From positions 1-56,543 of the IMG/VR virus record IMGVR_UViG_3300031999_000024: 56,543 nt of DNA; one strand, given 5' to 3'. Positions 27,231 to 49,147 of this stretch are shown here, in pieces (position 1 is the stretch's first letter; each line of letters opens with the position of its first letter). Below the pieces are notes generated by a model. It saw only the letters and a list, made by a program, of their open reading frames with translations, was not told the origin of the DNA and did not search any database. Position numbers and translations under genes: made by a program. This DNA comes from a virus (lineage: Duplodnaviria > Caudoviricetes).

Positions 27231-28142
27231 TTAAACTGACAATTTTTTAGATTCTTTATTATTTTTTCGTTTCAATAAAGCATCCTCTTTAGATAAAAGA
27301 AACTTAACTTTTGGATTTGGTGTTTCCTCATTATAAGGTATTAAGTTCTCAACCCTTCTGTTGGATAAATCAACATAATCTTTATCTAAATCAATTCCAA
27401 CATAGTTTCTATTATTAAGTTTCGCCATTTTTAATGTGGTTCCACTTCCACACATAGGATCCAACACCAATTCACCTTCATTACTCCAAGATAGGATATG
27501 ATCTTCCGCCAATGATTCAGGAAATATTGCCGGATGTTGGAATGCAATGTCGTCTTTGGATGAGAATCCTTTTCCGTTATTGATATACCAAACATTGTAT
27601 CTGGTTCCAAATTCGGATACGACAAATCTATCTACCTTTTTAAGGTTACCATCTTTTTCTCTTTTTGACGGATCACCAAAGTTACTATGCCCCGCCCATC
27701 TATTCGGTTTATCCTTCAATAAATTTACGGTTTTTGGTTTTCCTTTTGATAAGACAAACATATACTCAAATACTTGAGAATATCTTCCCGTTTCAGGAAA
27801 TGGAGCACCATTCTTATGGTAAATCATAGTGTCATAAAGGGTGAATCCAATCTCCATAAACTTAAGAGCTTGTTTGAATGAACTTCCTGTCTCACCACCA
27901 TTTTTTACTTGATCATTTACAACCCAAATAACGACACCACCTTTTTTGGTTACTCTATACAATTCACGAGCCATTTCCACAAATGGGAAACTAAATCCAT
28001 CCTCAAAAACAACCTCATCCTTAATTTTACCATTATAGGTTCTCATATTATCATAGGGGGGTGATGTCACCGTCAAGTCAAATGTGTTATCCTCATATCT
28101 TTGTAATGTTTCTATAGCATTACCTAAAATTATTTCGTTCAT
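27231..28142 (-). CDS. DNA methyltransferase, N4-cytosine/N6-adenine family (beta order)
   Basis: TVTSPPY, HPAIFP, VLDPMCGSGTT. Confidence 0.93.
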   Translation of the reverse strand: MNEIILGNAIETLQRYEDNTFDLTVTSPPYDNMRTYNGKIKDEVVFEDGFSFPFVEMARELYRVTKKGGVVIWVVNDQVKNGGETGSSFKQALKFMEIGFTLYDTMIYHKNGAPFPETGRYSQVFEYMFVLSKGKPKTVNLLKDKPNRWAGHSNFGDPSKREKDGNLKKVDRFVVSEFGTRYNVWYINNGKGFSSKDDIAFQHPAIFPESLAEDHILSWSNEGELVLDPMCGSGTTLKMAKLNNRNYVGIDLDKDYVDLSNRRVENLIPYNEETPNPKVKFLLSKEDALLKRKNNKESKKLSV

Positions 28143-28679
28143 TTATTTTAATTTAAATTCAATATTTATCCTATGATAACCTTTCCACGCAGTTCTGTTA
28201 ATCGCAGTTCTAAATTCTAACTCATTTTTGGAAATAAATCCATCCATACAGACAATTCCCTCACTTAAATTATTAATCCCTTTTTCTATTTTATCAAATA
28301 AATCAGTATTTTGATTGTAGTCCCAAAAATCCTGAACAAATTTATTATAAGTTGTTTGGTTTATTTTAGTTAACGCCGATTTACTTGATATTTTAAAATA
28401 TGGTTCTGAATATAATGTCCAAGAATTAAAGTGAGATTTCCTATATTTTTTAATCTCCCGATATTTTTTAGTTAGAGGATGATATAAGTCATATTTAGAT
28501 AAGTCGGATTTTTCGGATAAAACAAATAAAGAGGGGTTAAAATTACAATTTTTAAGTTTTGTAATATTATCCCTTCCTTCCCCTAACCAAATTATTTTAG
28601 GTGATTTTGTTTTCCTAATCCAACCATCAACCTCACATTTTTCCTCAAAATCAATTCCTGTCTTTGCCCTTATTTGCAT
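28143..28679 (-). CDS. Putative PD-(D/E)xK restriction endonuclease
   Basis: GIDFEEK helix plus YDLY...YREIKK; abuts the MTase start with a 0-bp gap. Confidence 0.5.
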   Translation of the reverse strand: MQIRAKTGIDFEEKCEVDGWIRKTKSPKIIWLGEGRDNITKLKNCNFNPSLFVLSEKSDLSKYDLYHPLTKKYREIKKYRKSHFNSWTLYSEPYFKISSKSALTKINQTTYNKFVQDFWDYNQNTDLFDKIEKGINNLSEGIVCMDGFISKNELEFRTAINRTAWKGYHRINIEFKLK

Positions 28680-28710: not shown

Positions 28711-30930
28711 TTATTGATACACTTGCGAAATATTATCTTCTTTTCTAATTTTAACTATAGTATCCGCCCATTGGCTAACCATTGGGTTATGTGTGATAAC
28801 AAATATCTTCTCAAAGTATTCTTTAATTTTAAAGAAAAATTCTGAAACCATTTCTAAATTATCGTTAGATATTTTTCCAAAAATCTCGTCCATGACCACG
28901 ATATTTGGTTTTGGTAATGAACAAATTTTACTTAAAACACATCTCAATGCTAATGACGCGATTGTTTTTTCATAACCTGATCCAGATATCATTAGTTTCT
29001 CCACACCGGTACCATTATCAATCATCATAAACTCAACTTCATTTTTATCACTAATTCTAACCTCAAGTTTGAAGTATGAACTATCTTCCATTAGTCGTTG
29101 GAGTTCTGAATTTATCAACGGTATCATAGTTTTCATTATGATTTTAGAAATCCCATTTTTACCAAAAGCTTCCAAATATATTTTATACAATTTCTCTTTT
29201 TCAGATTCTTCCTGAATTTTGATAATCATACTTAAATTATTCTTAATCTTTTCTTCTAAAGATGTAATCTGATAAGTGTTATTATTGATTGATGTATTTT
29301 TTTGAGTTCTTTCTCTTTCAAGTTCTTCAATTCTAATACCGGCTTTCAATAACAATGTTTCAATCTTTTCATTTTCTTTGATTTTATCCTGAAGTTCAGA
29401 ATATTTAATCAATTTTTGTTTAAGGTTTTCAATTTTTAAATCAAAACCCTCAATACTTAAATCATATTTTTCTTTGATTAGTTTGTTTTTTTCATACTCG
29501 TCAAACTCTTTTTTAAGTTGAGTGAAGGCTTGTTCTTTGCCTGATAAAACTTGCATTAACCCCAAAATTTCGTCTTTATGCTTGATATAACCATCAAGTT
29601 CGGCAATTTTAGATTGGGTAATAGATGCCATCATTAAGTCAATTCCACAGTGTTCACATTTGATTCCACCGTCCACAGAACTTTTCAATTCTTCAATTGA
29701 CTTAATTTTGGATTCTACCTCAACTTTTTGTTTAAACGCTTCGTTATATTCTTCCTTAACCTTGTCGTGCTTATCTTCGTAATAAAATGAAGATGGTTCA
29801 ACCACCTGTAATTCATTTAACTTTCCAATCACGTCATTTTTTTGACGTTCAAATGATTTTATTTCCTCACTAACTTTATCAGGATTTGTTTGAGCAATAT
29901 CATTATCAATATTGGTATGTTTCTTTTTTAACATATCATCACGATAATCCTTACCCTTCGTTAAGTTTACATCAATTTGATTAAGTTCTTCTTTTAATGT
30001 TTCAATACCGGTTTTTAAAGTTCCAATACTAGTTTCATATGTTTCATTATCACTTTTTAATTGTTCGGTGTTATAAACATTTGACAACATTGATTTGGAG
30101 AAATCAGAATAAATTTGTTTTGCAGATTCTTCTTTTTTCTTTAAAAACTCCAACCCCATAAACCTTGAGAGAACTTGTCCTCTTGCGGTTGGTTTTGACT
30201 CTAAAAGATCCTCAAGATTTGTTGCGGTAGTTAGGATTGTCATTAAGAAATCCTCTTTAGAACCTATTGATGTTTTAATAAACTGTTCAGTTTCTCGTCT
30301 TTGTTCACCAGTAAAATTTTGTAAACTTCCATCGGCAAGTTTTTTGAAAAAGTCCAATTCAGTTTTTACATTCCATTCACCCTTTTTAGACATCTTTCTT
30401 TCAATATTCCTAACAATAACATATTCCTCACCATCAATGATAATCTCACCTTTAACGGATACTTTATCTTTGGTTGTAAATCTGTTAAAGATTTCTTCCG
30501 CCTTTGATGTTTTTGTGGTTTCATTAAAGAATAGGAACATCAATAGATCCACACTTAAAACTGTATTATGAGATACAATACCATTTGTGTAATATTGATG
30601 CACTTCAGCAACTTGGACATCATAAAGGGTATCTTTTTCGTCCAATAACTTAATACTTGTTACCGAACTGTTACCATCAATAGTTTGTATTTTTTCCCCA
30701 ATTTTAAGTTCTTTAAGGACGACAAACTCGTTGTCCGTTTTTTTTAATTTATGATAATCCGCACCCTCAACAAACATACCGTTGTCTAATTCACATCTAT
30801 ATACCTCCGCATTTTTTTCCGTAATACCACACCACTCAATGTTTTTATACCCATATGGTGTATTAACTTTAAACCCTAAATCACCATATTTTTGGTAAAT
30901 TTCATACAACTCCCCAATTTTAATTTTCAT
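28711..30930 (-). CDS. sbcC: SbcC/Rad50 (gp46-like) ATPase, C-terminal part, preceded by a split-intein C-fragment
   Basis: First 122 aa are IntC ending YYTNGIVSHN|T. Then coiled coil, CEHC zinc hook, GSGYEK signature, Walker B VVMDE and H-loop ITHN. Confidence 0.93.
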   Translation of the reverse strand: MKIKIGELYEIYQKYGDLGFKVNTPYGYKNIEWCGITEKNAEVYRCELDNGMFVEGADYHKLKKTDNEFVVLKELKIGEKIQTIDGNSSVTSIKLLDEKDTLYDVQVAEVHQYYTNGIVSHNTVLSVDLLMFLFFNETTKTSKAEEIFNRFTTKDKVSVKGEIIIDGEEYVIVRNIERKMSKKGEWNVKTELDFFKKLADGSLQNFTGEQRRETEQFIKTSIGSKEDFLMTILTTATNLEDLLESKPTARGQVLSRFMGLEFLKKKEESAKQIYSDFSKSMLSNVYNTEQLKSDNETYETSIGTLKTGIETLKEELNQIDVNLTKGKDYRDDMLKKKHTNIDNDIAQTNPDKVSEEIKSFERQKNDVIGKLNELQVVEPSSFYYEDKHDKVKEEYNEAFKQKVEVESKIKSIEELKSSVDGGIKCEHCGIDLMMASITQSKIAELDGYIKHKDEILGLMQVLSGKEQAFTQLKKEFDEYEKNKLIKEKYDLSIEGFDLKIENLKQKLIKYSELQDKIKENEKIETLLLKAGIRIEELERERTQKNTSINNNTYQITSLEEKIKNNLSMIIKIQEESEKEKLYKIYLEAFGKNGISKIIMKTMIPLINSELQRLMEDSSYFKLEVRISDKNEVEFMMIDNGTGVEKLMISGSGYEKTIASLALRCVLSKICSLPKPNIVVMDEIFGKISNDNLEMVSEFFFKIKEYFEKIFVITHNPMVSQWADTIVKIRKEDNISQVYQ
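30565..30930 (-). mobile_element. Split intein C-fragment (IntC, 122 aa)
   Basis: Block B-like EGADYHKL, block F LYDVQVAEVHQYYTNG, block G SHN with Thr at +1. Confidence 0.93.
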
Positions 30931-30970
30931 TTTTTTATAACTTTTTCTTTATTTTCCTACCTATTTGTTT

Positions 30971-31582
30971 TTATTTTAATTCATCAGGTAAAAAACCTAT
31001 CTTATTTACTATGTAATCAATATCAAATTCAATTTCAATATTTGTATCATACCTAATACATTTCCCACCAAAATTTGGTGGATTAGATTCAACCACCGTA
31101 ATTCCATTACATTTATCAAAATCAATTCGTTGATTCTCACCATATGATAAGAAATTAGAGAACTCAATGTTTTTAATATACCATTTCTTAAATGATGAAG
31201 TTTCTTCTTCCGATTCGGACATTTTATTCTCAACCATTCTATTGATTGACATTACCTCGTCAACACGGTTTTCATACCCTTTAGATTTAAGGAATTGTTT
31301 TAACAAATCAGATTGATAATTTGTATCCATAATATTTACGGACACATCAACACTTTGCATCGTATCTTCCTGAATGTTTTTAACTTTCGTAATAACATTT
31401 ACATTGGTGGAATTATACTTCTTTTGAAAGTAATGTTTAACACTCTTGATTTTATCTTGAGTGAAATTATCCGAAATGTCTTCCCAAACTACCTGAATAG
31501 ATGGGTTTTCAAAGTTAGAAAACTCTAAATCTTTTATCATAATATTGTAATTAAATTTTTTTGGTGGATTAAATAGATCCAT
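30971..31582 (-). CDS. sbcC: SbcC/Rad50 N-terminal part followed by IntN
   Basis: IKNIEFSNFLSYGE.QRIDF...ITVVESNPPNFGGK|C matches the SMC/Rad50 N-terminal strands and the first half of the P-loop. Confidence 0.9.
   Translation of the reverse strand: MDLFNPPKKFNYNIMIKDLEFSNFENPSIQVVWEDISDNFTQDKIKSVKHYFQKKYNSTNVNVITKVKNIQEDTMQSVDVSVNIMDTNYQSDLLKQFLKSKGYENRVDEVMSINRMVENKMSESEEETSSFKKWYIKNIEFSNFLSYGENQRIDFDKCNGITVVESNPPNFGGKCIRYDTNIEIEFDIDYIVNKIGFLPDELK
30974..31060 (-). mobile_element. Split intein N-fragment (IntN, 29 aa)
   Basis: CIRYDTNIEIEFDIDYIVNKIGFLPDELK* directly after the P-loop NFGGK; block A-like C1. Confidence 0.88.
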
Positions 31583-32276: not shown

Positions 32277-33013
32277 AATTTTTGTGTTATATTAGAACCT
32301 TTAAGATAAACAGCCCCTTGACTAACCTTAATACTTTCTAATTGTTTATTTATGCCTTCCAGCTCTTCTATTTTTTTGTCTTTTAATGATAGTTCTTTTC
32401 TTAATTTCTGTAAAGTTTCCCCCATCATTTTTAACTTTTCATCATCTACAGGAATGTCTAATTTTTGTCTAAGTTTGTCTAACTCTTCATCTTTTTTAGA
32501 CATTTCATTTTGGAAAATATTTTCCATTTCAGTCGTTTTAGTAGAAAATATTTGTCTTTCATTACCCAATTCTTGGTTTAAGTGGAAAATATTTTCATTC
32601 AACTGTTGGATTTTTCCGAACAGTTCATCTTCACCTGTTTTGTCACTAATGTATTCTATTTTTGTGACAACTTTTTCAACGGGAACTTCCTTAATTACCT
32701 CAACTATTTTCTCAACCTCTCTAATAACTTCAACGGGAACTTCCACTCGTTTTTCAACTATTACCTCAATTTCCGTGTGTTTTTCACCAATCCCGTCTGT
32801 TTTTAAGTGTTTTTCCTCATCATTAAGTGAATTTCCCAAAAAACCATACTTTTCAATATTAAATCCTGATTGAAAACATTTTTTAAAAAATTTATCGGTG
32901 TCGTCAATTTTGTTTAATTCACAAAACGATAATACCGACTGTATGGTTTTTTTGTTAAATATTTTTGAGTAGTTCGGTTCCATTTTCAATATCTTCAAAT
33001 GATTTAATCTCAA
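32273..33013 (-). CDS. Coiled-coil protein with VEK/VEVP repeats
   Basis: EVIVEKRVEVPVEVIREVEKIVEVIKEVPVEKVV; the real start is probably the internal MEPNY. Confidence 0.75.
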   Translation of the reverse strand: MRLNHLKILKMEPNYSKIFNKKTIQSVLSFCELNKIDDTDKFFKKCFQSGFNIEKYGFLGNSLNDEEKHLKTDGIGEKHTEIEVIVEKRVEVPVEVIREVEKIVEVIKEVPVEKVVTKIEYISDKTGEDELFGKIQQLNENIFHLNQELGNERQIFSTKTTEMENIFQNEMSKKDEELDKLRQKLDIPVDDEKLKMMGETLQKLRKELSLKDKKIEELEGINKQLESIKVSQGAVYLKGSNITQKL

Positions 33014-33734
33014 ACTTCAAAAATGGCTTGGGGTTGAATAAGTCGGTGTATGCGTATTCTTTTGTTTCCACATTATACACTCCATATCCGTGTCTTCCAA
33101 TACTTTCCGCAATTGTCTGTTGTATTGTTGATCCCACCATATACCCCTTACCCGTTTTGAACTTAAATTCTTGTCTTTTGTGGATGTCACCACATAAAAC
33201 GACTTCAAGTCCATTAAATTTTTCAATGTCATAAGCTTCTTCACCAAAGTCAAAACCAATATCTGTTTTCATACCTTGTATTGGTCCGTGAAATAAACCA
33301 ATTCTTTTTCCTTTCGTCTCAGTAATATCGGGGGGAATATTTCCTTGATATTGAGAATACACACACCAACTAATGTTATCGTCTTCATAAACGCCACGAT
33401 CTCTGTAATAACGAATGTTTGGGTTGTTTAATGAATTTATGATTGGTGTTAATGCGTCCAATCTTTCAATATTCCCCGTGAGAAAGTCGTGATTACCTGG
33501 TATGATGATAGTTGGTGCAACATAAGAACATTCAGTCAGTATCCAAGCAACAAACTCAATTAATTCCGGTGTCATTTGATTTTTAGAATGGACTAAATCT
33601 CCCGTAAATATGATACGATCAGGTTCTAATTCTCTCCATTGTCCAATTGCGGTTTCAAGTATGGAACGATATAAATCGTGATCTTTAAATAATCTGATAT
33701 GTAAATCAGAGAAATGTATAATTTTTTTAACCAT
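32955..33734 (-). CDS. sbcD: SbcD/Mre11-like metallophosphoesterase nuclease
   Basis: SDLH, TGDLVH, PGNHD, LFHG, GDIHK; lies near sbcC. Confidence 0.88.
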   Translation of the reverse strand: MVKKIIHFSDLHIRLFKDHDLYRSILETAIGQWRELEPDRIIFTGDLVHSKNQMTPELIEFVAWILTECSYVAPTIIIPGNHDFLTGNIERLDALTPIINSLNNPNIRYYRDRGVYEDDNISWCVYSQYQGNIPPDITETKGKRIGLFHGPIQGMKTDIGFDFGEEAYDIEKFNGLEVVLCGDIHKRQEFKFKTGKGYMVGSTIQQTIAESIGRHGYGVYNVETKEYAYTDLFNPKPFLKFEIKSFEDIENGTELLKNI

Positions 33735-36865: not shown

Positions 36866-39106
36866 ATGGGAGGTTGTTCAGTAAATTATTGTGTTAGTGG
36901 TGGAACCATCTATGATGGTACCTATACTTATGGTGGATCATATTCGGGTTATGATTATTTTGTTGGGGGTAGTCACACTATATACTATTCCACAGGTCAA
37001 ACTCAATGGTGTTTGGCAACTACTTTAGGTGATCCAACTTGTTTATTATTTGGGAAATCTCCTTGCGTGAGTTCTTGTCCTGATTTGTGTGATGAAATTT
37101 TTGGTCCAGGTATTTGTCCTTCACCAACTCCATCACCTACCGCGGCTTGTTCAATAGATTTTGACGCAATTTTTGATTGTGAGGTTGTTGTTACTCAAAC
37201 ACCAACACCAACACCAACTCCAACGGTAACTCCAACAATGACACCAACATCAACTAATCCTTGTGGGGGAGTTGGTATTGATGTTTCGGGAGTTACTTAT
37301 AGTCCAACACCGACACCAACACCAACGATAACTCCATCACAGTCCCCCGAAATTACAAGACCTTGTAATGTTAACGGAACGGTTACATTTAACACATTAG
37401 ACGATTATATTCAATGCTCAAATAGTAAGCAATTCAAAGATTGTTTAAATGGATTTGTGTATTCAACAACTAATGTTGTATTAGATCCGATGGGTTCTAC
37501 TCCTGTAATTGGTATGGTGTATGAGGCGACTGTCAATGAAATTGATATATGTGTTGAATATATTGGAACTGTGGATAATACTAGTGGTGTTGCAACTATT
37601 GTATTAAACACCGAAATTGGTTTAGTTTCTGAAGGTGGATGTCTTGTTTGTATCCCTCCTGTTAGTTCTACGCCAACTCCAACACCAACTGTAACACCAA
37701 CAATAACACCATCATCAACACCGAGTGTTTGTTGCGAATATGTGGTAACGAATTTATTATTTAGTCCAAACACATTTAATATTAAAAGTTGTTCCACTAA
37801 TCAAACCGAAGTGATTACAATAAATGGTGGGTCATCAATAACGGTTAAATCATATAAAGTCCCTGTTGGTAACAATATAAATATTGTTTTTGTTGATTGT
37901 CCTTGTGTTACTCCAACACCAACACCTACGGTAACACCAACAATTAGTGTGACACCAACGGTAACTCCAACTCCAACGGTAACTCCAACATCAAGTTTAC
38001 CAATAGTTAATCCTTTTATATCAGTTTGGAGAACGACTAGTCCTTCGGAAACTATTAATTTACCTTACGATCCTGCGGGAACATATAGTGGAACAATTGA
38101 TTGGGGTGATGGTAATACATCCGTTAATTCATACGCAAATATATCACATACTTACGCCTCCGCAGGTGACTATACCGTAACTATAACCGGAACAATTAAT
38201 GGATTTAGTTTTTTCCACGACAATACTAATGTGTTAAATATATTGAGGGTTGAACAATGGGGTAATGTAATAATTAGTAATACTGGTGGTCAATTTGAAG
38301 ATTGTTCTAATCTTACTTTAACCACAGTTACCGATATACCAAATCTTACATCCACATCAACTTTATATCATATGTTCCTTAGTTGTACATCATTAACCAC
38401 AATAAATAATTTGAATTCTTGGGATGTTTCTAATGTCACTAATATGGGTGCAATGTTTTTTGCCTGTCCTCTATTTGATCAGGATATAAGTTCTTGGGAT
38501 GTTTCTAATGTTACTAATATGAGTTCTATGTTTACCGGTTCTTTATTTAACCAAGATATTAGTTCTTGGAATGTTTCTGGTGTGACTAGTATGATTTCTA
38601 CGTTTTCTAATACACCGTTTAATCAGGATATAAGTTCTTGGGATGTTTCTAATGTTACTGCTATGAATGCTATGTTTAACGATACTCCATTCAATCAACC
38701 TATTGGGAGTTGGGATGTTTCTAATGTTACTAATATGAGTGCAATGTTTCTTAGTTCTTCATTTAACCAACCTATTGGTTCTTGGAATGTTTCTGGTGTA
38801 ACTAATATGGGTAATATGTTTACTACCGCAACCGCGTTTACTCAGGATATTAGTTCTTGGAATGTTTCTGGCGTTACCGATATGGGATATATGTTTAATA
38901 ACGCAACCTCATTTAATCAGGATATTAGTTCTTGGGATGTATCTAATGTTACCAATATGCTTCAGATGTTCCGATCCGCAACTTCATTTAACCAAGATTT
39001 AAGTAGTTGGTGTGTCACATTAATACCTTCATCACCAACTTTCTTTGATTTTCTTGCAACATCTTGGGTTTTACCTAGACCTGCTTGGGGTACTTGCCCA
39101 CCATAA
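36866..39106 (+). CDS. Cys-rich, Pro/Thr-linker protein with PKD-like domain and C-terminal BspA/DUF285 repeats (putative adhesin or receptor-binding protein)
   Basis: PTPTPT tracts, IDWGDG...HTYASAGDYTVTI, and eight FNQDISSWDVSNVTNM-type repeats (about 38410-39010). Confidence 0.88.
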   Translation: MGGCSVNYCVSGGTIYDGTYTYGGSYSGYDYFVGGSHTIYYSTGQTQWCLATTLGDPTCLLFGKSPCVSSCPDLCDEIFGPGICPSPTPSPTAACSIDFDAIFDCEVVVTQTPTPTPTPTVTPTMTPTSTNPCGGVGIDVSGVTYSPTPTPTPTITPSQSPEITRPCNVNGTVTFNTLDDYIQCSNSKQFKDCLNGFVYSTTNVVLDPMGSTPVIGMVYEATVNEIDICVEYIGTVDNTSGVATIVLNTEIGLVSEGGCLVCIPPVSSTPTPTPTVTPTITPSSTPSVCCEYVVTNLLFSPNTFNIKSCSTNQTEVITINGGSSITVKSYKVPVGNNINIVFVDCPCVTPTPTPTVTPTISVTPTVTPTPTVTPTSSLPIVNPFISVWRTTSPSETINLPYDPAGTYSGTIDWGDGNTSVNSYANISHTYASAGDYTVTITGTINGFSFFHDNTNVLNILRVEQWGNVIISNTGGQFEDCSNLTLTTVTDIPNLTSTSTLYHMFLSCTSLTTINNLNSWDVSNVTNMGAMFFACPLFDQDISSWDVSNVTNMSSMFTGSLFNQDISSWNVSGVTSMISTFSNTPFNQDISSWDVSNVTAMNAMFNDTPFNQPIGSWDVSNVTNMSAMFLSSSFNQPIGSWNVSGVTNMGNMFTTATAFTQDISSWNVSGVTDMGYMFNNATSFNQDISSWDVSNVTNMLQMFRSATSFNQDLSSWCVTLIPSSPTFFDFLATSWVLPRPAWGTCPP

Positions 39107-39838: not shown

Positions 39839-42277
39839 TTACAGGTCCAACTTTACCACAAACTGTTGTATTCCCTGTCTTAATACGGGTGATTGTAGTT
39901 TAGATATAATCACAATATCTTTATTTTTGTCCAATAACGCAATCTCCGTAATGTATGATTTAGTTCCTTGTGTCCAAGTAGGATTTGATGTGTTTAAAAA
40001 TTCAGCATTACTCAAATTAATCTTATATTTCATTTCATATATTGTTGCTTGGATATCAGTTTCCAAACCGCCATAAAAATAAAATTCATCTCCAAAATTT
40101 AAAGTTTGTCCTGTCGTCCCCAATGTTGTTAAGGATATGTAGTCATTTAAATCATAATATGGTGCGGTATTATACAATTCAGGAGTAATCACAAATGTGG
40201 TTCCTGTAAGTCCATCTTGAGTTAAATATCCATTGATTGTTGACGCACTGATGACATCGGTATAATCAATTATTCTCCATTGAGTTGAGTCAGGTTTATT
40301 TCCTGTTGTAACTTTTTGACATAAAATTTCAAAATTGGTTCCGAAATATCCTTGAGGTAAATAATTACAACCGGTAATACAAGGTGTTCCTGCACTATAT
40401 ACCGGTTGAACCATACATCCAAACTCGGCACCAAATCTTAATGCAACATTTTTAGAAGTGTCCGGGTTACAATCATTGTTATTACCAACAACTTTTGAAT
40501 AGTAATTACAGTGTAATGAATTGGTGAAACCTGTTTGATTTGTCAGTCTATAAGTGACATACATAGTTTCAGTATTTCCTGTCAATATCCCATCAACTGT
40601 TGATGTTGGTGTTCCACAGGTATTTGGTGTTACCAATGATACTTGAGGTGCCGGTAAAGTCCAGTTTCTGTTTGCTTTATATGACATTGCGGCAATTATC
40701 TCTTCATCGTCAATAATAACAATTTTACTATCAGGGAATACTTTACCTATTCTACTTGGGTATCCGTCAGCATTTGCGTGTGTATCCCAAAGATGATAAT
40801 ATCTAATACCAGGTTGATTCATTCCCGAATTTTTATTTGATTGTATGTATTGAACATCAAATAAGTTTTTATCCTCAAATCCTTCAGGATCAACCCAAAA
40901 TGTTTGTCCTGAACAACATTCAGGATTTTTGTGCCACATCAACCAAGGTAAATGTAGTTTAAAGTTTCTCGCTTGTCCTGTCGTATCTTCAGGATTTGCT
41001 GAATCATAAGGTTCTAACGCAAATTTCTCACCATAGAAGAAATCAATCGTTTGATTTGTATAATGTATAATTGCAATCGCTTTTTGTTCTTCAGGTTGAA
41101 CTACTATCTTCTCATCAAATGAGTTATAGTAATTAACGGAACTCGTATCTTTTTGTCCCAAACTTGATGCGTATCCAAAATATTCTTTTGTTCCAAGATA
41201 ATCAATAGATCCAAAATACTCATATCCTTCATATACTGAAGGGTATAATCCTGCCGGGCTTTCACTCCAAGGAATATTCATATTCCATATTTTAACATCA
41301 AACTCATCAATATCACATACGGTTTCAAAATTAATAACATCAGTACTCCAATGAGGTGCCGGTGTTATACTATCGTATAATGTTGTCATATTTGACGGGT
41401 ATATTAATGTTCTTGAATAACATGATCCTGAGAATGATGAAAAGTCAGGTAAATTTCTATCTACCGTAATTACATTGTTACAATATGCAACAATTCTATA
41501 TGTCATCATAGGATAACAACTATTGATTGACATAAAACAATCCGCCATTGGTGGTAATGGACACACAGACGATGACGATGGTGTCAAACAAGGTGTTTTT
41601 GTTGGGGTTGGTGTTGGACTTGCCGAACACTCAAATGTGTATGTCGCACTTGGTGTTGGTGTTGGTGTTTGTGTTGTACCAACGGATGCCGATGGGGTTG
41701 GTGTTGGTAAATTATAACAAGTATTATTTACATCCCACTTACCATCATAATAAATTGTGATGAAATCACCAACCGAAGGGATTGATTCATTAATTAAATT
41801 AGATCCCGAATATATTAACTCAACTTGATTTGTCCCACTTAAAGAACACATATTAACAACATAGTTTGAGCTGACAACATAATTATTATTCGTTAACGCA
41901 CTCCAACTAATTGTTGTTGCGGTAGTGTTTCCCGAAAAAAATCCTCTTAACGGTGCTCTATTAAACACAGGTTCAACAACCGAATCCATATAAGGAATAC
42001 CAAATGTGTTACCTGCCGTCCCATCAACATAATAAGGATACTTAACATTTTGTCTGTTAGATTGTGGAGATCCAGCACTATTTTGACTATTAAATGGTGG
42101 TTCCAATACCATACTATATGGTTGATTATATGTTGACGATAATGCGTTATACGATACTTCACTATCTCCCACTTGGAAATACGCGATGTTAAAATTACCT
42201 TCAGATAATTTTTGTCTACCTGTATCCGTAACTCTTGTGTTAACTAAACCAGAGGTATTTTTGATTATGTATGCCAT
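39839..42277 (-). CDS. Putative tail/baseplate structural protein
   Basis: N-terminal TDTGRQKLSEGNFNIAYFQVGDSE, C-terminal YITEIALLD....IISKLQSP, PT linker; TATTTATA at 42282-42289. Confidence 0.7.
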   Translation of the reverse strand: MAYIIKNTSGLVNTRVTDTGRQKLSEGNFNIAYFQVGDSEVSYNALSSTYNQPYSMVLEPPFNSQNSAGSPQSNRQNVKYPYYVDGTAGNTFGIPYMDSVVEPVFNRAPLRGFFSGNTTATTISWSALTNNNYVVSSNYVVNMCSLSGTNQVELIYSGSNLINESIPSVGDFITIYYDGKWDVNNTCYNLPTPTPSASVGTTQTPTPTPSATYTFECSASPTPTPTKTPCLTPSSSSVCPLPPMADCFMSINSCYPMMTYRIVAYCNNVITVDRNLPDFSSFSGSCYSRTLIYPSNMTTLYDSITPAPHWSTDVINFETVCDIDEFDVKIWNMNIPWSESPAGLYPSVYEGYEYFGSIDYLGTKEYFGYASSLGQKDTSSVNYYNSFDEKIVVQPEEQKAIAIIHYTNQTIDFFYGEKFALEPYDSANPEDTTGQARNFKLHLPWLMWHKNPECCSGQTFWVDPEGFEDKNLFDVQYIQSNKNSGMNQPGIRYYHLWDTHANADGYPSRIGKVFPDSKIVIIDDEEIIAAMSYKANRNWTLPAPQVSLVTPNTCGTPTSTVDGILTGNTETMYVTYRLTNQTGFTNSLHCNYYSKVVGNNNDCNPDTSKNVALRFGAEFGCMVQPVYSAGTPCITGCNYLPQGYFGTNFEILCQKVTTGNKPDSTQWRIIDYTDVISASTINGYLTQDGLTGTTFVITPELYNTAPYYDLNDYISLTTLGTTGQTLNFGDEFYFYGGLETDIQATIYEMKYKINLSNAEFLNTSNPTWTQGTKSYITEIALLDKNKDIVIISKLQSPVLRQGIQQFVVKLDL

Positions 42278-42306
42278 TTGTTATAAATACTATATTTTTT
42301 ATTTTA

Positions 42307-43893
42307 TTACGATCCAATATGTGGTGGTGGGTTTATAACGGTTACCGTACTACAAGGGCAATTATTTAATGTCACATCATTCAAATATAAATGATACGAG
42401 TTTGTCACACCTAAACATTTGGTAAGGATTGGTAAATTTAATGTCGGTGTTGGATTACTTATTGTACCACTTACCGTATCTCCTTGAACTATTGTAATTC
42501 CATTCCAAGTATACGTGTTTAACGATTGAATACTAACCCCTGTTGGACATTGAAGATTATTTAATAAATTAGTATTTCCACTATTTACAACTGTACTATA
42601 CGGAATTGAAACCATATTTTTATTCACCGTTACAACATTATTCCAAGTATAAGCACCATATTGCGGTTGCTCTATTAAATCTTTCACATGCACTATGTCA
42701 AACGATATACTAGCACCAATTGGTAATTGGGGTGATACCGTTACATTAAATGTTGTTGCGTTAATATTTAAACTTAATGTTACAGTATAAAGTATTGGTG
42801 CCGGTGGTGCGTTTAAAGTAATATTTTGATTAAATGTTTGTCCCGACGCATCCATCACAATTGTTGGGTATATACCCGGACATAGATTTTGAAACACAGG
42901 TTGATTAGGGATAAAATTAATTCCATTAATACTATACGAATACGGTGGAACTCCATCCTCAACATTAAAAATTATACTTCCATCACTAACACAATTACCA
43001 GGAGTGTTATTAGTAATACAAGTAGGTTGATTAACCGTTAATGTATAATTCAAATTATTTTGAACAACGCAACTACCTTCGTTCATTTGAACCGATCCTA
43101 TCACAGGATTTGGTGGAACTGACCCTAATGAATACCATCCTGAAATAGGTGGTGCCACAGTATTGGTATTAATTAAACTACCATATGTCCATCCTGATAC
43201 TTCCCACTGACTTGATCCGCTCATCCATACCACATCATAACCTGACGGTGTTGATGTCCAAGTAGGTTTTCCATTGTAATAACCGTTATAACTAAAATCA
43301 ATCAATTCCGAATAAATATGGTTTTCAAAATTACCCAAAATAGTTAAACATAAATCACCATATACCGGTGTTGGGCTTGGTGTTGGTGTGGGAGTTGGTG
43401 TAGGAGTTGGACTTGGTGCCATTAAATAACAAGTGGTTCTTGCGGTAAAATCACCATAAAAATCGGTAACAACCGCATCATATTCTCCACTACCTAAATT
43501 TGTTAATGTTTGTGAATAATTACCGTTTTCCCATTGTATTGTGTATGGTGGAGTTCCTCCTGTCACATATAAAGTTGCGACTCCGTCAAAACTACTTATT
43601 GATGTGGGATTTTGAGTTACGCATTGAACTCCTAATGGGAATATTGTTATCACATTACATTCGTTTTGATAACTATATACTTCACCAGTACATACACCAT
43701 CAAGACAAAAACCGTTAACATTAAAATTTATGTCTAAACAATTTGATATTGGATTCAAATCCTCACTACATATACTATATGTTGTTCCGCTTTGGAATGT
43801 TTCCGTTACGGTATTTCCACTACAATTAGTGTATGTTAAATCATACTCACTAACTTTAGTAAAACTAAATTCTAAACAATAACAATTTGGCAT
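42307..43893 (-). CDS. Putative virion adhesin or fibre protein with SprB-like repeats and a PT linker
   Basis: VTGGTPPYTIQW...LGSGEYDAVVTD; GVPPYSYSING...NLCPGIY. Confidence 0.75.
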   Translation of the reverse strand: MPNCYCLEFSFTKVSEYDLTYTNCSGNTVTETFQSGTTYSICSEDLNPISNCLDINFNVNGFCLDGVCTGEVYSYQNECNVITIFPLGVQCVTQNPTSISSFDGVATLYVTGGTPPYTIQWENGNYSQTLTNLGSGEYDAVVTDFYGDFTARTTCYLMAPSPTPTPTPTPTPSPTPVYGDLCLTILGNFENHIYSELIDFSYNGYYNGKPTWTSTPSGYDVVWMSGSSQWEVSGWTYGSLINTNTVAPPISGWYSLGSVPPNPVIGSVQMNEGSCVVQNNLNYTLTVNQPTCITNNTPGNCVSDGSIIFNVEDGVPPYSYSINGINFIPNQPVFQNLCPGIYPTIVMDASGQTFNQNITLNAPPAPILYTVTLSLNINATTFNVTVSPQLPIGASISFDIVHVKDLIEQPQYGAYTWNNVVTVNKNMVSIPYSTVVNSGNTNLLNNLQCPTGVSIQSLNTYTWNGITIVQGDTVSGTISNPTPTLNLPILTKCLGVTNSYHLYLNDVTLNNCPCSTVTVINPPPHIGS

Positions 43894-44016
43894 TTATTAA
43901 TCTTTTACTATAAATAATCAACTTACCATTTTTTAGTAACTTAATTATAAATAAAGATATTATAGTATTGTGAAAAGTGAATTATGTGGTATGGTAAACA
44001 CCTCATATGTGAGTTT

Positions 44017-46596
44017 TTAATATGTTTTATTTAATACGAATATATCACTGTAGATTGAGTTTAACGCACTATTAGAACTCCATTGTGCGGTTACATTTAA
44101 AGTATTACTACCTGTCGTATCAAATGTTGTATTATTAACCGTATTAAAACCAAATCCTTCTTGAACTCCACTAGAATCTTTTAAAACGTGTAAGTTTCCT
44201 AGTGTAACAATAGACGCAACTGTTGTCCCACCAATTTGTCTTATCGTAAAATTAAGGCTCATTGACCATACTTTACTCACAATTCCCGGCATTGTTAATG
44301 GTCCTGAATCGGCTAATATTACGGATCCCGACTTTACTCTAATTGTTAAGGTGTCATTATTTTTAGCAGATATTACCCCACCAAATTCCCCACTAAATGA
44401 GTCACCAACACTAAAACCATTTGCCGGTACTATTAATGTTCCAACACCACCACCAATTATTGTCGTTTCTACTGTTGTTGCACTTATCGCAACGCTATTA
44501 CCCGTTTGAGAGAATAACCCATAATTTGTTACTCCTGCAACTGTTTTAGTTTTAACAATACCTGTTGACGAATCTCTCGTTAAAAATTGTGTAACTGTTT
44601 GGGTATCTGTAATTGGAGTATCTTGTATCGCCAAATTATTAATATGGAAAGTGCACGCAGATACTGAATATACACCTTTACCTGAAGCCGATGAAAAATT
44701 GTGACTCACAGTATTTCCCGAACCTCCTAATATTGAAGAAAGTGATCCATTTGAGGTATTATCTTTTCCACCACCTATATTTGATTGATTACATAATGTT
44801 GTGTTATCCCACCCTCCACTTATTGTTGAAAACTGTCCGATTATTGTATTTAGATAACCACCACCAATTGTGGATCCAATACCAAATACCTTATTTCCAC
44901 TACCACCTAAAATACTTGATGTATCCCCTGTTGTTGTATTACATAACCCACCCCCAATTACCGAATAAGTATCCACAGTTGTATTTTTACAACCTCCACC
45001 AATAAATTCGTGACCAGATTTAACACAATTTTTTTCACCACCACCTATGGTTGATCTTCCCGCCGTAGGTGCGTTAGAATTACATAATCCACCCCCAATT
45101 GTTGAGTATTCCGAATTTAAAAAATTACAAACACCTCCCCCTATTGTTGAGAAATTGTTTGATACAGTATTTCCACTACCACCTCCTATGGTTGAAGTAG
45201 TTCCTGAAACCATATTACCATAACCACCACTTATAGTTGATCCTGAGGAAATTACCGTATTTCCAGCTCCCCCACCAATCGTTGATCGAATACCATAAGA
45301 TCCATTTTGTTTTCCTCCACCAATAAATGACATATCGCAGTATGACACATTACCAACACCTCCACCAATAAATGAACTACCCCCACAGGTTGTATTACCA
45401 TCACCACCACCAATTGTTGAACAGTTTCCGATGGATGTGTTTTTATAACCACCACCTATGGTTGATCCTATATCCGTTGCAGTATTTCCACTACCACCAC
45501 CGATGGTTGAACTATCCCCTAATGATGTGTTCTGATTACCTCCACCAATAAACGAACATGCTCCGAAGGATGTGTTTTTATAACCTCCACTAATTGTGGT
45601 GTTACATCCATTTGAGGTATTAAAATTACCCCCACCAATGGACGAATAACATCCGCTTGATGTGTTACTACCACCACCACCAATTGTTGATCTATGTCCA
45701 CTTGATGTGTTGCTATTTCCTCCTCCAATTGTTGAATAATATCCACTTGATGTGTTTCGTATACCCCCACCAATGGACGAATAACATCCACTTGATGTGT
45801 TACATACTCCACCACCAATTGTTGAGAAATATCCACTTGATGTGTTAAATACTCCACCCCCAATAAATGAATAACAATTACTTGATGTGTTACGCCTTCC
45901 ACCTCCAATTACAGAATAACACCCCTCCGATGTGTTTTGAGATCCCCCACCAACAAATGAATAACATCCACTTGATGTGTTATAATATCCCCCACTTATT
46001 GTTGATTTATCACCACTTGATGCGTTACAAAACCCCCCACCAACAAATGAATAATATCCGCTTGATGTGTTACTTCTACCTCCACCTATTGTTGAGTAAT
46101 ATTCACTTGATGTGTTATACCATCCACCACCAATAAATGAACCTATTTCTTCTGACGCATTACCAATACCTCCACCAACAAATGAATAATCCCCACTTGA
46201 TGTGTTGTTATAACCTCCACCAATAAACGAATAATCTCCACTTGATGCGTTACTTTTACCTCCACCTATTATTGAGAAATATCCACTTGATGTGTTGTTA
46301 TAACCTCCACCAACTGTTGAACATATTCCACTTGATGTGTTAAGATACCCCCCACTTACGGTAGAATAATCCCCCGAAGCATCGTTACCATTACCACATC
46401 TTTCAACCGAACAATTTCCCGCACCAACGATCATAACATATGTCCCCCCGGTTAAAGAACTCACTATTTGTTGAAAACACGCTTTATATGATGATCCCGC
46501 AGGATTACCTTGTGATGTGTCGTTAGGGTTGACGATATGAATTAAATCGGTTAAATTAACTCCTGTTGCTGGTGTTTGATCAGTTAAAAATGCCAT
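44017..46596 (-). CDS. Putative tail fibre with about 40 glycine-rich 14-aa repeats
   Basis: GGGxxNTSSGxYSxI units; 42-bp periodicity over about 44690-46380; TATTTATA at 46611-46618. Confidence 0.82.
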   Translation of the reverse strand: MAFLTDQTPATGVNLTDLIHIVNPNDTSQGNPAGSSYKACFQQIVSSLTGGTYVMIVGAGNCSVERCGNGNDASGDYSTVSGGYLNTSSGICSTVGGGYNNTSSGYFSIIGGGKSNASSGDYSFIGGGYNNTSSGDYSFVGGGIGNASEEIGSFIGGGWYNTSSEYYSTIGGGRSNTSSGYYSFVGGGFCNASSGDKSTISGGYYNTSSGCYSFVGGGSQNTSEGCYSVIGGGRRNTSSNCYSFIGGGVFNTSSGYFSTIGGGVCNTSSGCYSSIGGGIRNTSSGYYSTIGGGNSNTSSGHRSTIGGGGSNTSSGCYSSIGGGNFNTSNGCNTTISGGYKNTSFGACSFIGGGNQNTSLGDSSTIGGGSGNTATDIGSTIGGGYKNTSIGNCSTIGGGDGNTTCGGSSFIGGGVGNVSYCDMSFIGGGKQNGSYGIRSTIGGGAGNTVISSGSTISGGYGNMVSGTTSTIGGGSGNTVSNNFSTIGGGVCNFLNSEYSTIGGGLCNSNAPTAGRSTIGGGEKNCVKSGHEFIGGGCKNTTVDTYSVIGGGLCNTTTGDTSSILGGSGNKVFGIGSTIGGGYLNTIIGQFSTISGGWDNTTLCNQSNIGGGKDNTSNGSLSSILGGSGNTVSHNFSSASGKGVYSVSACTFHINNLAIQDTPITDTQTVTQFLTRDSSTGIVKTKTVAGVTNYGLFSQTGNSVAISATTVETTIIGGGVGTLIVPANGFSVGDSFSGEFGGVISAKNNDTLTIRVKSGSVILADSGPLTMPGIVSKVWSMSLNFTIRQIGGTTVASIVTLGNLHVLKDSSGVQEGFGFNTVNNTTFDTTGSNTLNVTAQWSSNSALNSIYSDIFVLNKTY

Positions 46597-46630
46597 TATT
46601 CTTTTTTATATATAAATACACCTTAATTTG

Positions 46631-46933
46631 TTATTGAAATTGGTAAATACTATAATCCATAAAGAAAAAATCGTCCCCATCTTGGAATTGTTTGAATATC
46701 GGTGGTAATTCGTTACAATTAATAATAACAAGTTTTTCACAAAATGTGTCATTTAATTTAACTCCTATTGCGGGTGCGGTATTAAATTGTAGTGGTAGCG
46801 TTATTGTTACTGTCGGAGGAATTGCGGTATTTACCGTCGCAACCAAAACACATTGATTACCATATACATCACAAATATAAATTTGGTATGGTATTGTTAA
46901 TCCGGTTACATTATTTATTTGTAATTGTGTCAT
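46631..46933 (-). CDS. Small putative virion protein (paralogue of 36642..36863)
   Basis: INNVTG..IPYQIYICD..GNQCVLVATV. Confidence 0.75.
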   Translation of the reverse strand: MTQLQINNVTGLTIPYQIYICDVYGNQCVLVATVNTAIPPTVTITLPLQFNTAPAIGVKLNDTFCEKLVIINCNELPPIFKQFQDGDDFFFMDYSIYQFQ

Positions 46934-46957
46934 TATAATTCTTGAATTATATAACTG

Positions 46958-49147
46958 TTATGGTGTGCACGAGACGCAATATATGTCATAATCAATTAAT
47001 AAATTGATAATAACTCTTGCATCGTCTAATTGTGTCGTTACTGTAGGTTGACAACTTGTTCCGCTAGTTAAACAACCACTTTTTATAATTACTTTATTTA
47101 TCTCAATATTTGTCTCAACCGAACTAATTCCTGAAAACCCATATAAAGTGTCCTTAATCACATCCGTCCACTCGTTGTCAGTAGGATAATCGTCAAGTCC
47201 TGTTGAGGTGTAAAATAAACTTTGAGAATTAACTCCATCAACAGTGACATCAATTGTGAATGTTGCGGAGCTTAATATACAATTTGTATCTCCTGATGTT
47301 AAATCAAAGAAACCTTCATTAAACATTTGTTGAACCCCTCTCCTACCAAGTACCCCACTATTTTGGAAATTACTGTCACAAACTGAATATGTTTGGTAAC
47401 TACTTTGTAATACTGTCCCAAATAAACTAATTGTTTTAGTTAATGAACATCCATTATCATCAATGACTTCTAACGAATATGTTCCGGCAGTTAATCCCGT
47501 TACAGTGGATCCTGTTTGTCCATTAACATTAGAACTCCAATTTAAAGTGAATGGTGGTTCTCCACTAGTAATTAATGTATTTAATTCACCATCATTACCC
47601 GAAACTGGTTGTGTTACGAAAAAATCAAAATATACAGGTGATGATGCGGTTACATATGTGGTTTCCGTTTGTTGACATCCACCCGCATCTGTGACTGTTA
47701 CACTATAAAATCCTGGAGATAAATTACTAAATGTTGTCACAGGTCCAGCCGGAAATCCTGTGATTTCATAAGTGTATGGTAATGTTCCCCCACTTGACGC
47801 TAAAATTTGTATTGTCCCATTATTAAACCCACAAGTTGTCCCCGTAGTATTTGCGGTAATAGTATATAAATTAGTGTTATTAATTTCAGTAGTTCCTGTG
47901 TATGTACAAACACCATTACTAATAGTTATTGTATATGTATCTGAAGATAACGGTGGTGAATTATAATTATTACCATCGGTAGATGTAGTTACGGTATTAC
48001 CTAAAGAATTTATTATGGTGTATGTGTAAGTACCAACATTACTACCCCCATCCAATTCAATAAATATTTGCCCATCATTATTGTTACAATTTGAATTAAC
48101 CGTGCTAATGTTAATTATTGAGAATCCATTTGGTGTTAATAATGTTGTTGTTTGTGACGCACTACATAACCCCGCATCGGTAACATTAACGGTAAAATCA
48201 CCTGAAGATAACCCCGTAAATGTATAACTATTTGAGAATGTAACCGCCACAGATCCGTTTGAACCCGAAAAATAAAATGGTGCGGTTCCTCCTGTAAGTT
48301 GTGCGGTTACCTCACCATTATTTGAGAAACAACTAGGTGCGACAATCGTAAAATTAACAATACCTACCGGTAAAACTTGATTTACCGTTATATTTGTCAG
48401 TGTTTTTGAACACGACAATGAATCAGTCATAGTCACACTATACACGCCACTTGTCAATCCTGTTACGGTTGATCCTGTTTGCCCATTAGCGTTAGAACTC
48501 CAACTATATGAATATGGTGGTGTTCCTGTTTGTCCTGTGACAAATATTTTTCCACTACCATCAAGGGCAACGCAACTTCCATCATCTATCACATAAACCC
48601 CAAAATCAACCGTTGTTGACGATTTTATAATACAACTTTCACTTTTTCCTGTGCATCCACCCCCATCATCACCTATAACATAATATGTTCCTCCAGATAA
48701 AGGAGCAAATGTGTAACTACCTAATGTGGTGTCACCACTTAACTGATATCCATTTGTTAATTCATATAGATACACTTTACCACCACCATAATTAACAGAA
48801 AATGTTGAGGTTAATGATCCATTATTAGTCCCGCAGGTTGTATTTGTTTGTGATGATATGGATAAACAACTACCTGTAGATATATTAAAATTTATTATTG
48901 TTGATGTCGGTCCAGGACTTAAACAAGAATCCGTTATTTCCAAACTGTATGATCCACCCGTCAAACCACTAAAATAGTATGATGTTGTAGATGCCGAAGT
49001 CGGTAATAAACCCGACGAAGTTAATTCCATAACCGAATATGGAGGTGCGGTGCTACCTGTAATATCAAACGACACTACCCCCGACCCATTACTTGAACAG
49101 TCACCTGTTACAAAATAATTATATACAAATGGTAAACCACAACTCAT
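46958..49147 (-). CDS. SprB-repeat-containing putative virion protein
   Basis: About seven repeats of the type C...NG.I....GG..PY.Y.W......TGL..G.YSV..TD..GC. Confidence 0.82.
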   Translation of the reverse strand: MSCGLPFVYNYFVTGDCSSNGSGVVSFDITGSTAPPYSVMELTSSGLLPTSASTTSYYFSGLTGGSYSLEITDSCLSPGPTSTIINFNISTGSCLSISSQTNTTCGTNNGSLTSTFSVNYGGGKVYLYELTNGYQLSGDTTLGSYTFAPLSGGTYYVIGDDGGGCTGKSESCIIKSSTTVDFGVYVIDDGSCVALDGSGKIFVTGQTGTPPYSYSWSSNANGQTGSTVTGLTSGVYSVTMTDSLSCSKTLTNITVNQVLPVGIVNFTIVAPSCFSNNGEVTAQLTGGTAPFYFSGSNGSVAVTFSNSYTFTGLSSGDFTVNVTDAGLCSASQTTTLLTPNGFSIINISTVNSNCNNNDGQIFIELDGGSNVGTYTYTIINSLGNTVTTSTDGNNYNSPPLSSDTYTITISNGVCTYTGTTEINNTNLYTITANTTGTTCGFNNGTIQILASSGGTLPYTYEITGFPAGPVTTFSNLSPGFYSVTVTDAGGCQQTETTYVTASSPVYFDFFVTQPVSGNDGELNTLITSGEPPFTLNWSSNVNGQTGSTVTGLTAGTYSLEVIDDNGCSLTKTISLFGTVLQSSYQTYSVCDSNFQNSGVLGRRGVQQMFNEGFFDLTSGDTNCILSSATFTIDVTVDGVNSQSLFYTSTGLDDYPTDNEWTDVIKDTLYGFSGISSVETNIEINKVIIKSGCLTSGTSCQPTVTTQLDDARVIINLLIDYDIYCVSCTP

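Follow-up and report, generated by a model that had tools for sequence, protein, structure and literature searches.

A gene interrupted within its nucleotide-binding motif raises the question of how an intact protein can be made from it. In the window, by which is meant the whole 56,543-nt stretch of phage DNA analyzed here (Duplodnaviria; Caudoviricetes; IMG/VR virus record IMGVR_UViG_3300031999_000024, positions 1 to 56,543), the gene of a Rad50/gp46-like ATPase is present as two open reading frames (ORFs) on the minus strand, and the break lies between the Lys and the Thr of Walker A (GGK|T). A preliminary description, made from the sequence alone, attributed this break to an intein split atypically into a short N-terminal half (IntN) and a long C-terminal half (IntC), and proposed that the ATPase is assembled by protein trans-splicing. 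The intein is indeed genuine, its atypical split is natural, and it is probably active; the phage Rad50/gp46-like ATPase is a new host protein for it. The account favored here, which is considered likely to be correct, is that the Rad50 gene was fractured at GGK|T by an active split intein whose endonuclease gene was later lost.

Anatomy of the Locus and Identity of the Intein

The features of the locus are listed below (coordinates are those of the window).

30971..31582 (-): N-fragment ORF, 203 aa; ...NPPNFGGK, then CIRYDT...LPDELK (29 residues) and TAA
31061..31582 (-): N-extein of the Rad50/gp46-like ATPase, 174 aa, ending at Walker A (...NFGGK)
30971..31060 (-): IntN, 29 codons (30974..31060), the first being the Cys1 nucleophile; TAA at 30971..30973
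30931..30970 (-): spacer, 40 nt, A-rich
30928..30952 (-): endonuclease-gene relic, made up of the IntC ATG (30928..30930) and the 22 nt of spacer before it
28711..30930 (-): C-fragment ORF, 739 aa, in a frame different from that of the N-fragment (offset of 652 nt, not a multiple of 3)
30565..30930 (-): IntC, 122 codons, including His60 (block B), Asp104 (block F) and His121-Asn122 (block G)
28711..30564 (-): C-extein of the Rad50/gp46-like ATPase, 617 aa plus stop, starting at the Thr+1 nucleophile (TVLS)

The IntC contains the motifs GADYH (His60), LYDVQV (Asp104) and GIVSHN (His121 and Asn122), directly followed by TVLS. All sequence statements of the preliminary description on this anatomy (29-aa IntN, 40-nt A-rich spacer, change of frame, 122-aa IntC, blocks B, F and G, TVLS) hold.

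The insertion is precise. Scans of IMG/VR with both fragments, covering the best 80 of 149 and the best 80 of 157 confirmed stretches, gave 159 loci on 111 distinct contigs; 150 of these loci (105 contigs) carry a continuous, intein-free gene and nine (six contigs) a split intein. The closest relatives within this set, L001-L004, are intein-free. When the extein DNA was joined in silico, without IntN, spacer and IntC, it gave a gap-free alignment of 2376 nt to each of these four (95.5-96.3% identity), and the spliced protein would differ from theirs at 15-22 of 791 residues, none of which falls in the first 449 aa (identical to L003 throughout). Intein-free homologs among the truncated proteins, seen in 36 of the 120 clusters listed in the protein search below, read PPNFGGKTVLS/T over the insertion site. 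The statement that joining the exteins restores the P-loop GGK|T is borne out by both comparisons.

The C-fragment passes the TIGR01443 (intein_Cterm) model with 21.9 bits against a cut-off of 15.6. The best sequence matches of IntC in the PDB are VidaL (6vgv, E 2.7e-6, over IntC residues 2-122) and CatC, from the engineered consensus of the AceL-TerL type (6dsl_B, E 1.7e-4), and the N-termini of IntC and CatC lie within about three residues of each other. In tblastn searches, IntC was ~32% identical to contiguous inteins in the terminase genes of cultured phages such as phiMAM1, PhiW-14 and Vibrio VP-1; apart from such terminase inteins, only distant Rad50-like matches to the locus were found, and at the nucleotide level (blastn) none of 50,697 phage records matched it. 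Natural atypical split sites lie either after strand 2 (S1: VidaL and PolB16) or after the first helix (S2: AceL TerL and GOS TerL), and short IntNs range from ~15 to 37 aa, according to the accessible part of a recent paper (PMC13014065). From its length and the CatC alignment, the 29-aa IntN would be of the S2 type. The earlier assignment to an atypically split intein at the Walker A Lys of a Rad50/SbcC-like ATPase is supported by the anatomy, by the VidaL, CatC and TIGR01443 matches, and by the invariant residues and the predicted docking described below.

Reality of the Stop and the Spacer

Contigs from two other samples (X3 and X4) span 30917..31215 and 30917..31237 with 0 differences and cross both the stop and the whole spacer; they extend just 14 nt into the IntC gene, so that the stop and the spacer are bridged and the start of IntC is only touched. 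A contig of X2 begins within the spacer and continues for 463 nt with 0 differences, and near-identical N-fragments (P0152 and P0153) come from other assemblies. The stop and the spacer are not an assembly error. A second X2 contig, with 23 differences, joins 30564 to 31061, and what it omits is precisely IntC, spacer, stop and IntN (496 nt). This exact intein-free joint shows that an intein-free strain co-occurs with the intein-bearing one.

Conservation, Selection and Predicted Docking of the Halves

In 40 aligned N-fragments, Cys175 (i.e., Cys1), G196, F197, P199 and E201 of IntN are invariant. In 48 aligned C-fragments, whose overall identity goes down to 17-26%, the same is true of H60, L102, D104, I118, H121 and N122 of IntC. 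At +1, close relatives have Thr and more distant ones mostly Ser, and most of 150 representatives from the IntC search read SHN followed by T, S or C. The ratio of nonsynonymous to synonymous substitution (dN/dS) of the intein (151 codons) is 0.06-0.14 against ten relatives at a dS of 0.74-1.4, values which are averages over the whole divergence and not just over the time after the loss of the endonuclease; that of the exteins is 0.06-0.07 against intein-free relatives. These ratios indicate that the intein is under purifying selection.

The two halves are also predicted to fit each other. A two-chain complex prediction of IntC (1-140) with the tail of the N-fragment (160-203), both given as alignments made in this analysis, scored 0.74, whereas the best of three controls scored 0.00. 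Of 80 solved complexes 58 attain this mark, and of 110 mismatched pairs 2 do; as similar split-intein complexes have been solved (6vgv and 6dsl), the score shows likeness to them and not binding. The runs share at least 92% of contacts, and the predicted local distance difference test (pLDDT) value of the partner is at least 69. In the predicted interface, residues 173-187 on the IntN side meet IntC residues 1-11, 18-23, 59-61, 100-105 and 120-122, the catalytic blocks included, with a predicted pairing of 180-186 with IntC 2-5 and 20-23.

Distribution and Contiguous Forms

A protein search with the N-fragment found 420 proteins. Among the 120 clusters listed, 78 end in GGK plus an IntN of 29-37 aa, with the stop at a nearly fixed position, while the rest are pieces of intein-free genes (36) or are otherwise truncated or garbled (6). 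A HMMER search with IntC against 1.84 billion representatives (50% identity) gave 733 matches at E <= 1e-3 and 118 at E <= 1e-10; most of the top 35 start IntC within the first six residues and continue into a Rad50-like extein. Many environmental phage contigs thus carry this split intein at the identical position, and it is rare in the literature, not in nature.

Uninterrupted forms also exist. L175 (2150-2899 (+)) carries at GGK|T a contiguous mini-intein that is 81% identical to the IntC of the window, without the last ~14 IntN residues and without a spacer, and is either ancestral or re-fused. The uninterrupted inteins without the LGFLPDELK tail of IntN are those of L175 and P0030, and those with the tail are P0018, P0021, P0023 and P0037. 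The idea that this tail was acquired together with the endonuclease cassette was rejected, as these last four are contiguous and have it. With the forms described in the next section, one insertion site is seen intein-free, with a contiguous intein, split with the endonuclease, split with its relics, and split with no endonuclease, five states in all. As a separate observation, two of these proteins, P0021 (1017 aa) and P0023 (1211 aa), have the appearance of Mre11 and Rad50 fused in a single chain with a metallophosphoesterase-like N-terminus, and their Walker A is interrupted by a contiguous intein of the same family at about residue 413.

The Endonuclease Gene in Relatives and Its Deletion in the Window

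All six intein-bearing IMG/VR contigs have an ORF of 336-353 aa between the halves, its stop overlapping the start of IntC. A scan of metagenomes with IntC gave 28 loci, of which 19 have the full endonuclease ORF between the halves, three have it on cut contigs, four have relics only, one is the contiguous mini-intein of L175 and one is uninformative. The gaps with relics measure 177 nt in L177, L178 and L186 and 406 nt, with frameshifts, in L183; these four are independent lineages and represent intermediate stages toward the 40-nt spacer.

In the window itself, positions 30928..30952 exactly equal the 3' end of the endonuclease ORF in L005, L012 and L161. This 25-mer occurs once in the window, and none of 100 shuffles matches it even with two mismatches allowed. 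Compared with L005, ~1 kb is missing upstream of the relic and another 20 nt between two AAAAAATG repeats. The exact relic and the missing ~1 kb mean that the window is a deletion derivative of a fractured gene. The absence of an endonuclease between the halves, noted in the preliminary description, is true for the window, but it results from a secondary deletion which left the 25-nt relic, and most intein-bearing relatives have the gene. A search for a homolog of this ORF in the record of the window found none; the record is judged to be ~19% complete, so that a copy elsewhere in the genome is possible.

The ORF of the relatives is a probable Vsr-like homing endonuclease. Its family is large (590 matches), and two members at JGI are named 'very-short-patch-repair endonuclease'. 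Its AlphaFold (AF2) model has a pLDDT of 88, and Foldseek ranks 2-4 are 1cw0 and 1vsr (Vsr) and 3r3p (the catalytic domain of I-Bth0305I); these three matches have a probability of 0.98-1.00 and a template modeling (TM) score on the target of 0.53-0.64, but their E-values are weak (0.06-0.24). The invariant residues E260, D264, H267 and D314 fit the Vsr-like (EDxHD) family. In sequence searches, alone or as a profile, the ORF had no match in Pfam, NCBIfam or the PDB, and among PHROG families it matched only PHROG 22677, of unknown function. In seven metagenome loci (L168, L169, L172, L174, L176, L184 and L185) the gap between the halves is 1381-1904 nt, against ~1058 nt in the common form, and holds something besides the endonuclease ORF.

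Traces of Mobility

The intein is more strongly conserved than its host: identity is 81-89% for IntC, against 62-71% for the C-extein. In P0155 and P0156 the IntN is 100% identical to that of the window, and identity over the entire N-fragment is 79%. Over the first 1000 extein nucleotides, the window differs from all four close intein-free relatives at 17 positions. Twelve of the 17 lie at 447-533, flanking the junction at 522/523; all 12 are synonymous, and eight agree with at least three of four intein-bearing alleles. This cluster looks like a co-conversion tract from a homing event, and selection on the target site of the nuclease could produce the same pattern. The homing donor is not among the sampled loci, because the dS of the intein to the nearest of them is 0.74. 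Toward the closest intein-free relatives, differences also cluster a second time, at the C-extein's 3' end (spliced extein 1965..2331, ~28756..29122 (-)); the 7-15 differences per 66 nt there, against 0-3 elsewhere, suggest a separate recombination patch.

Proposed Mechanism

In the favored account, a class 1 intein, split after the first helix (S2), would fracture the Rad50/gp46-like gene at Walker A. Two polypeptides would be made, probably from one transcript, namely the N-extein with the 29-aa IntN and the 122-aa IntC with the C-extein. No terminator-like site was found on the minus strand between the intein halves, and promoter-like sites are not enriched (6 against a mean of 6.4 in shuffles). 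The IntN would insert two strands and a helix into the near-complete IntC, finishing the Hint fold, and Cys1, His60, Asp104, His121-Asn122 and Thr+1 would carry out trans-splicing. Lys174 would be joined to Thr, giving a Rad50 of 791 aa with a junction identical to that of the intein-free protein of sister phages. Only the spliced product would have an intact P-loop; the position of the insertion, between the Lys and the Thr of Walker A, supports this, and the preliminary description likewise proposed that the ATPase is assembled only by trans-splicing.

As for its origin, a contiguous mini-intein may have been invaded by a free-standing Vsr-like homing endonuclease gene and have become both split and mobile. 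The relatives suggest that the element then homed into the lineage of the window, bringing short flanking extein DNA with it, and that the endonuclease gene was deleted later, leaving the 40-nt spacer with its 25-nt relic. The split intein would persist because an interruption of the P-loop tolerates only precise loss.

Evidence Against and Alternative Explanations

Several results weigh against the favored account. The C-fragment stays below the thresholds of two Pfam models, PF14890 (Intein_splicing, 19.7 against 35.8) and PF07591 (PT-HINT, 19.6 against 27.7); the model is built mainly from larger inteins, only the C-terminal third was aligned, and the natural contiguous relative L175 (26 bits) is also under the cut-off. 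Block B of class 1 inteins reads TxxH, with Thr as the usual residue. Whereas His60 is invariant in the 48 sequences, the place of the Thr is taken by Ala57 in the window and by Ser in relatives further away. The lack of this Thr, already remarked on in the preliminary description, is real and is a feature of the clade; since the intein is under purifying selection, it is no sign of decay. The reach of the dN/dS averages and of the docking score, given above, belongs on the same side. No clear Shine-Dalgarno sequence was found before the IntC gene or before the N-fragment gene, and the contig from an RNA library (X21) covers only 31137..31400, has six differences and comes from a relative, so that it carries no information on expression. 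The 40-nt endonuclease-free form was found in none of the 28 metagenome loci, and the 45 nt across the endonuclease-free junction had 0 exact matches among viral contigs; the 40-nt derivative has little independent replication beyond near-identical contigs.

Four other explanations were weighed. Improbable, though the most novel, is a reading as domestication: after the loss of the endonuclease the two-piece gene would have been kept because trans-splicing at the P-loop serves as a post-translational switch, and the lineage would record a whole life cycle at one site. If this were true, the Mre11-Rad50 nuclease would be delayed or gated in infection, for example until both fragments have accumulated or until a redox or temperature condition permits the thioester step of Cys1, and the record at the one site would run from the contiguous mini-intein through invasion by the endonuclease, which made the atypical split, to decay of the endonuclease and possibly re-fusion. 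The post-translational control suggested in the preliminary description found no support, and persistence of the split is equally explained by the impossibility of imprecise deletion; a regulatory role of the split is possible and unsupported. It is less probable again that the halves no longer splice and have become a non-covalent docking module which holds the two Rad50 pieces together, as in the phage NrdA fragmented by a mobile element. Phage enzymes that are fragmented and yet assembled without splicing are on record, as the accessible part of one report describes (PMC3045599), the halves are predicted to bind, and the Thr of block B is absent. However, a Hint domain of 151 residues wedged after the Walker A Lys would be hard to square with nucleotide binding, and the residues needed for the chemistry only (Cys1, His60, Asp104, His121, Asn122 and Thr/Ser+1) are invariant or nearly so in the 40 and 48 sequences.

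That the locus is a decaying pseudogene, in which the endonuclease deletion hurt the expression of the second half and Rad50 is dispensable or lost, is very improbable. The deletion did take away an upstream ORF whose stop overlapped the start of IntC in the relatives, with possible translational coupling, and the exact 40-nt form was not found in the other contigs searched. But both ORFs are intact (203 and 739 codons), the extein dN/dS of 0.06-0.07 against the intein-free sisters goes with only 15-22 differences in 791 aa, the IntN is identical to that of other clusters, P0152 and P0153 are near-identical, and the contigs of the other samples have 0 differences. An assembly or sequencing artefact, with a gene that is really continuous or intein-free in this genome, can hardly be the explanation. 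The spacer is A-rich and of low complexity, and Logan contigs break near 30883..30937, with holes there in all runs; against this, the same stop position is found in 78 of the 120 listed clusters from many assemblies, the X3 and X4 contigs cross the stop and the spacer without a difference, and the intein-free X2 allele has 23 other differences and so belongs to another strain.

The Host Protein and Its Genomic Surroundings

Both extein parts match PHROG 77 (SbcC-like), the N-extein with E 7.6e-6 and the C-extein with E 3.5e-32. NCBIfam Rad50 models match the C-extein at E 3.4e-8 and 1e-5; both matches are below the cut-offs, which makes the host protein a distant member of the family. The motifs of Rad50 are present in order: Walker A (GGK|T, split by the intein), the zinc hook CxxC, the signature Ser, Walker B (DE) and the H-loop His. 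F171, G172, G173 and K174 of Walker A are invariant in the 40 aligned N-fragments, and C425, C428, S651, D681, E682 and H714 are nearly invariant in the 48 aligned C-fragments. Ahead of the first ABC strand and Walker A lies a conserved N-terminal extension of ~130 aa (31190..31582 (-)), kept in all 40 N-fragments; no significant family match was found for it, the only one being to DNA_pol3_alpha at E 0.015, below the cut-off.

The neighboring genes are as follows.

32955..33734 (-): Mre11/SbcD-like phosphoesterase, Pfam Metallophos E 1.4e-14, above the cut-off; the expected nuclease partner, upstream on the same strand with three small ORFs between
27231..28142 (-): N6/N4 DNA methylase (PF01555, E 2.9e-40), just downstream of the Rad50 gene
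28143..28679 (-): abutting ORF of 178 aa without a Pfam match

Nine of ten large ORFs scanned (393-1001 aa; e.g., within 39839..52152 (-)) match no PHROG family at E <= 1e-5; the tenth, 36866..39106 (+), alone matches PHROG families, all of unknown function. The window is a whole IMG/VR virus record, and related contigs reach up to 304 kb; it is a 56.5-kb fragment of an uncultured large phage of a poorly charted lineage.

Significance and Comparison With Known Systems

Inteins with a short IntN are wanted for protein labeling, in which a half of that length can be supplied by chemical synthesis. The family described here offers a 29-aa IntN, a new host protein and a Cys1/Thr+1 pair, which would leave no cysteine scar at the junction, and its dozens of natural variants could serve consensus design or orthogonality screens. 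The five-state series could test how homing endonucleases create split inteins and what follows their decay. Short-IntN inteins had been called rare; this stands for those that have been characterized, since the accessible part of a 2026 paper names only PolB16, VidaL, AceL TerL and GOS TerL as characterized natural examples (PMC13014065), but it does not stand for nature, where 78 of the 120 listed clusters are of this kind. In the open-access papers searched, nothing was found on a split intein in Rad50, SbcC or gp46, and an earlier mention is possible.

The locus resembles AceL-TerL, GOS-TerL and the engineered consensus Cat in its short IntN (25, 37 and 30 aa there) and long IntC (104-115 aa there) and, as far as the sources consulted in part show, in the split after the first helix and the phage or metagenomic origin. 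It shares the Cys1 nucleophile with AceL-TerL and Cat, and its IntC is homologous to CatC (E 1.7e-4). The three known systems are inteins of phage terminase large subunits with Cys at +1, whereas the host here is a Rad50/gp46-like ATPase and the +1 residue is Thr; unlike in them, the IntC is longer (122 aa) and no endonuclease gene is left between the halves. VidaL (6vgv/6vgw), the best match among solved structures, is likewise natural, atypically split, cysteine-dependent and metagenomic, but its break comes sooner, after strand 2 (S1 site), and its IntN has 16 aa, going by the accessible text (PMC13014065); its host gene also differs.

The fractured genes described by Dassa et al. in 2009, in which the halves of a split intein flank a free-standing GIY-YIG or Vsr-like homing endonuclease, are found mainly in phages (PMC2677866). 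The accessible part of that paper also describes one terminase intein that is broken at another point and one gp41 locus that lacks an endonuclease. The fractured hosts it names are gp41, IMPDH, DnaE, NrdA, NrdJ, ligase and terminase, together with an SbcD-like gene that is fractured but has no intein; Rad50/SbcC is absent from that list. L005, L009-L013 and the 19 metagenome loci share exactly this arrangement, whereas the window lacks the endonuclease and is a derivative of the arrangement, not a member. The host protein is new; the intein is a split intein of known type, and nothing about it is categorically new.

The cyanobacterial DnaE intein is an endonuclease-free split intein in an essential gene of DNA metabolism whose product arises only by trans-splicing, and its two genes are far apart. 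The locus in the window is like it in lacking an endonuclease and in its DNA-metabolism host. In contrast, DnaE is canonically split, with an IntN of ~100-120 aa and an IntC of 35-50 aa by the accessible text of the same 2026 paper (PMC13014065), and the two genes of the window lie 40 nt apart.

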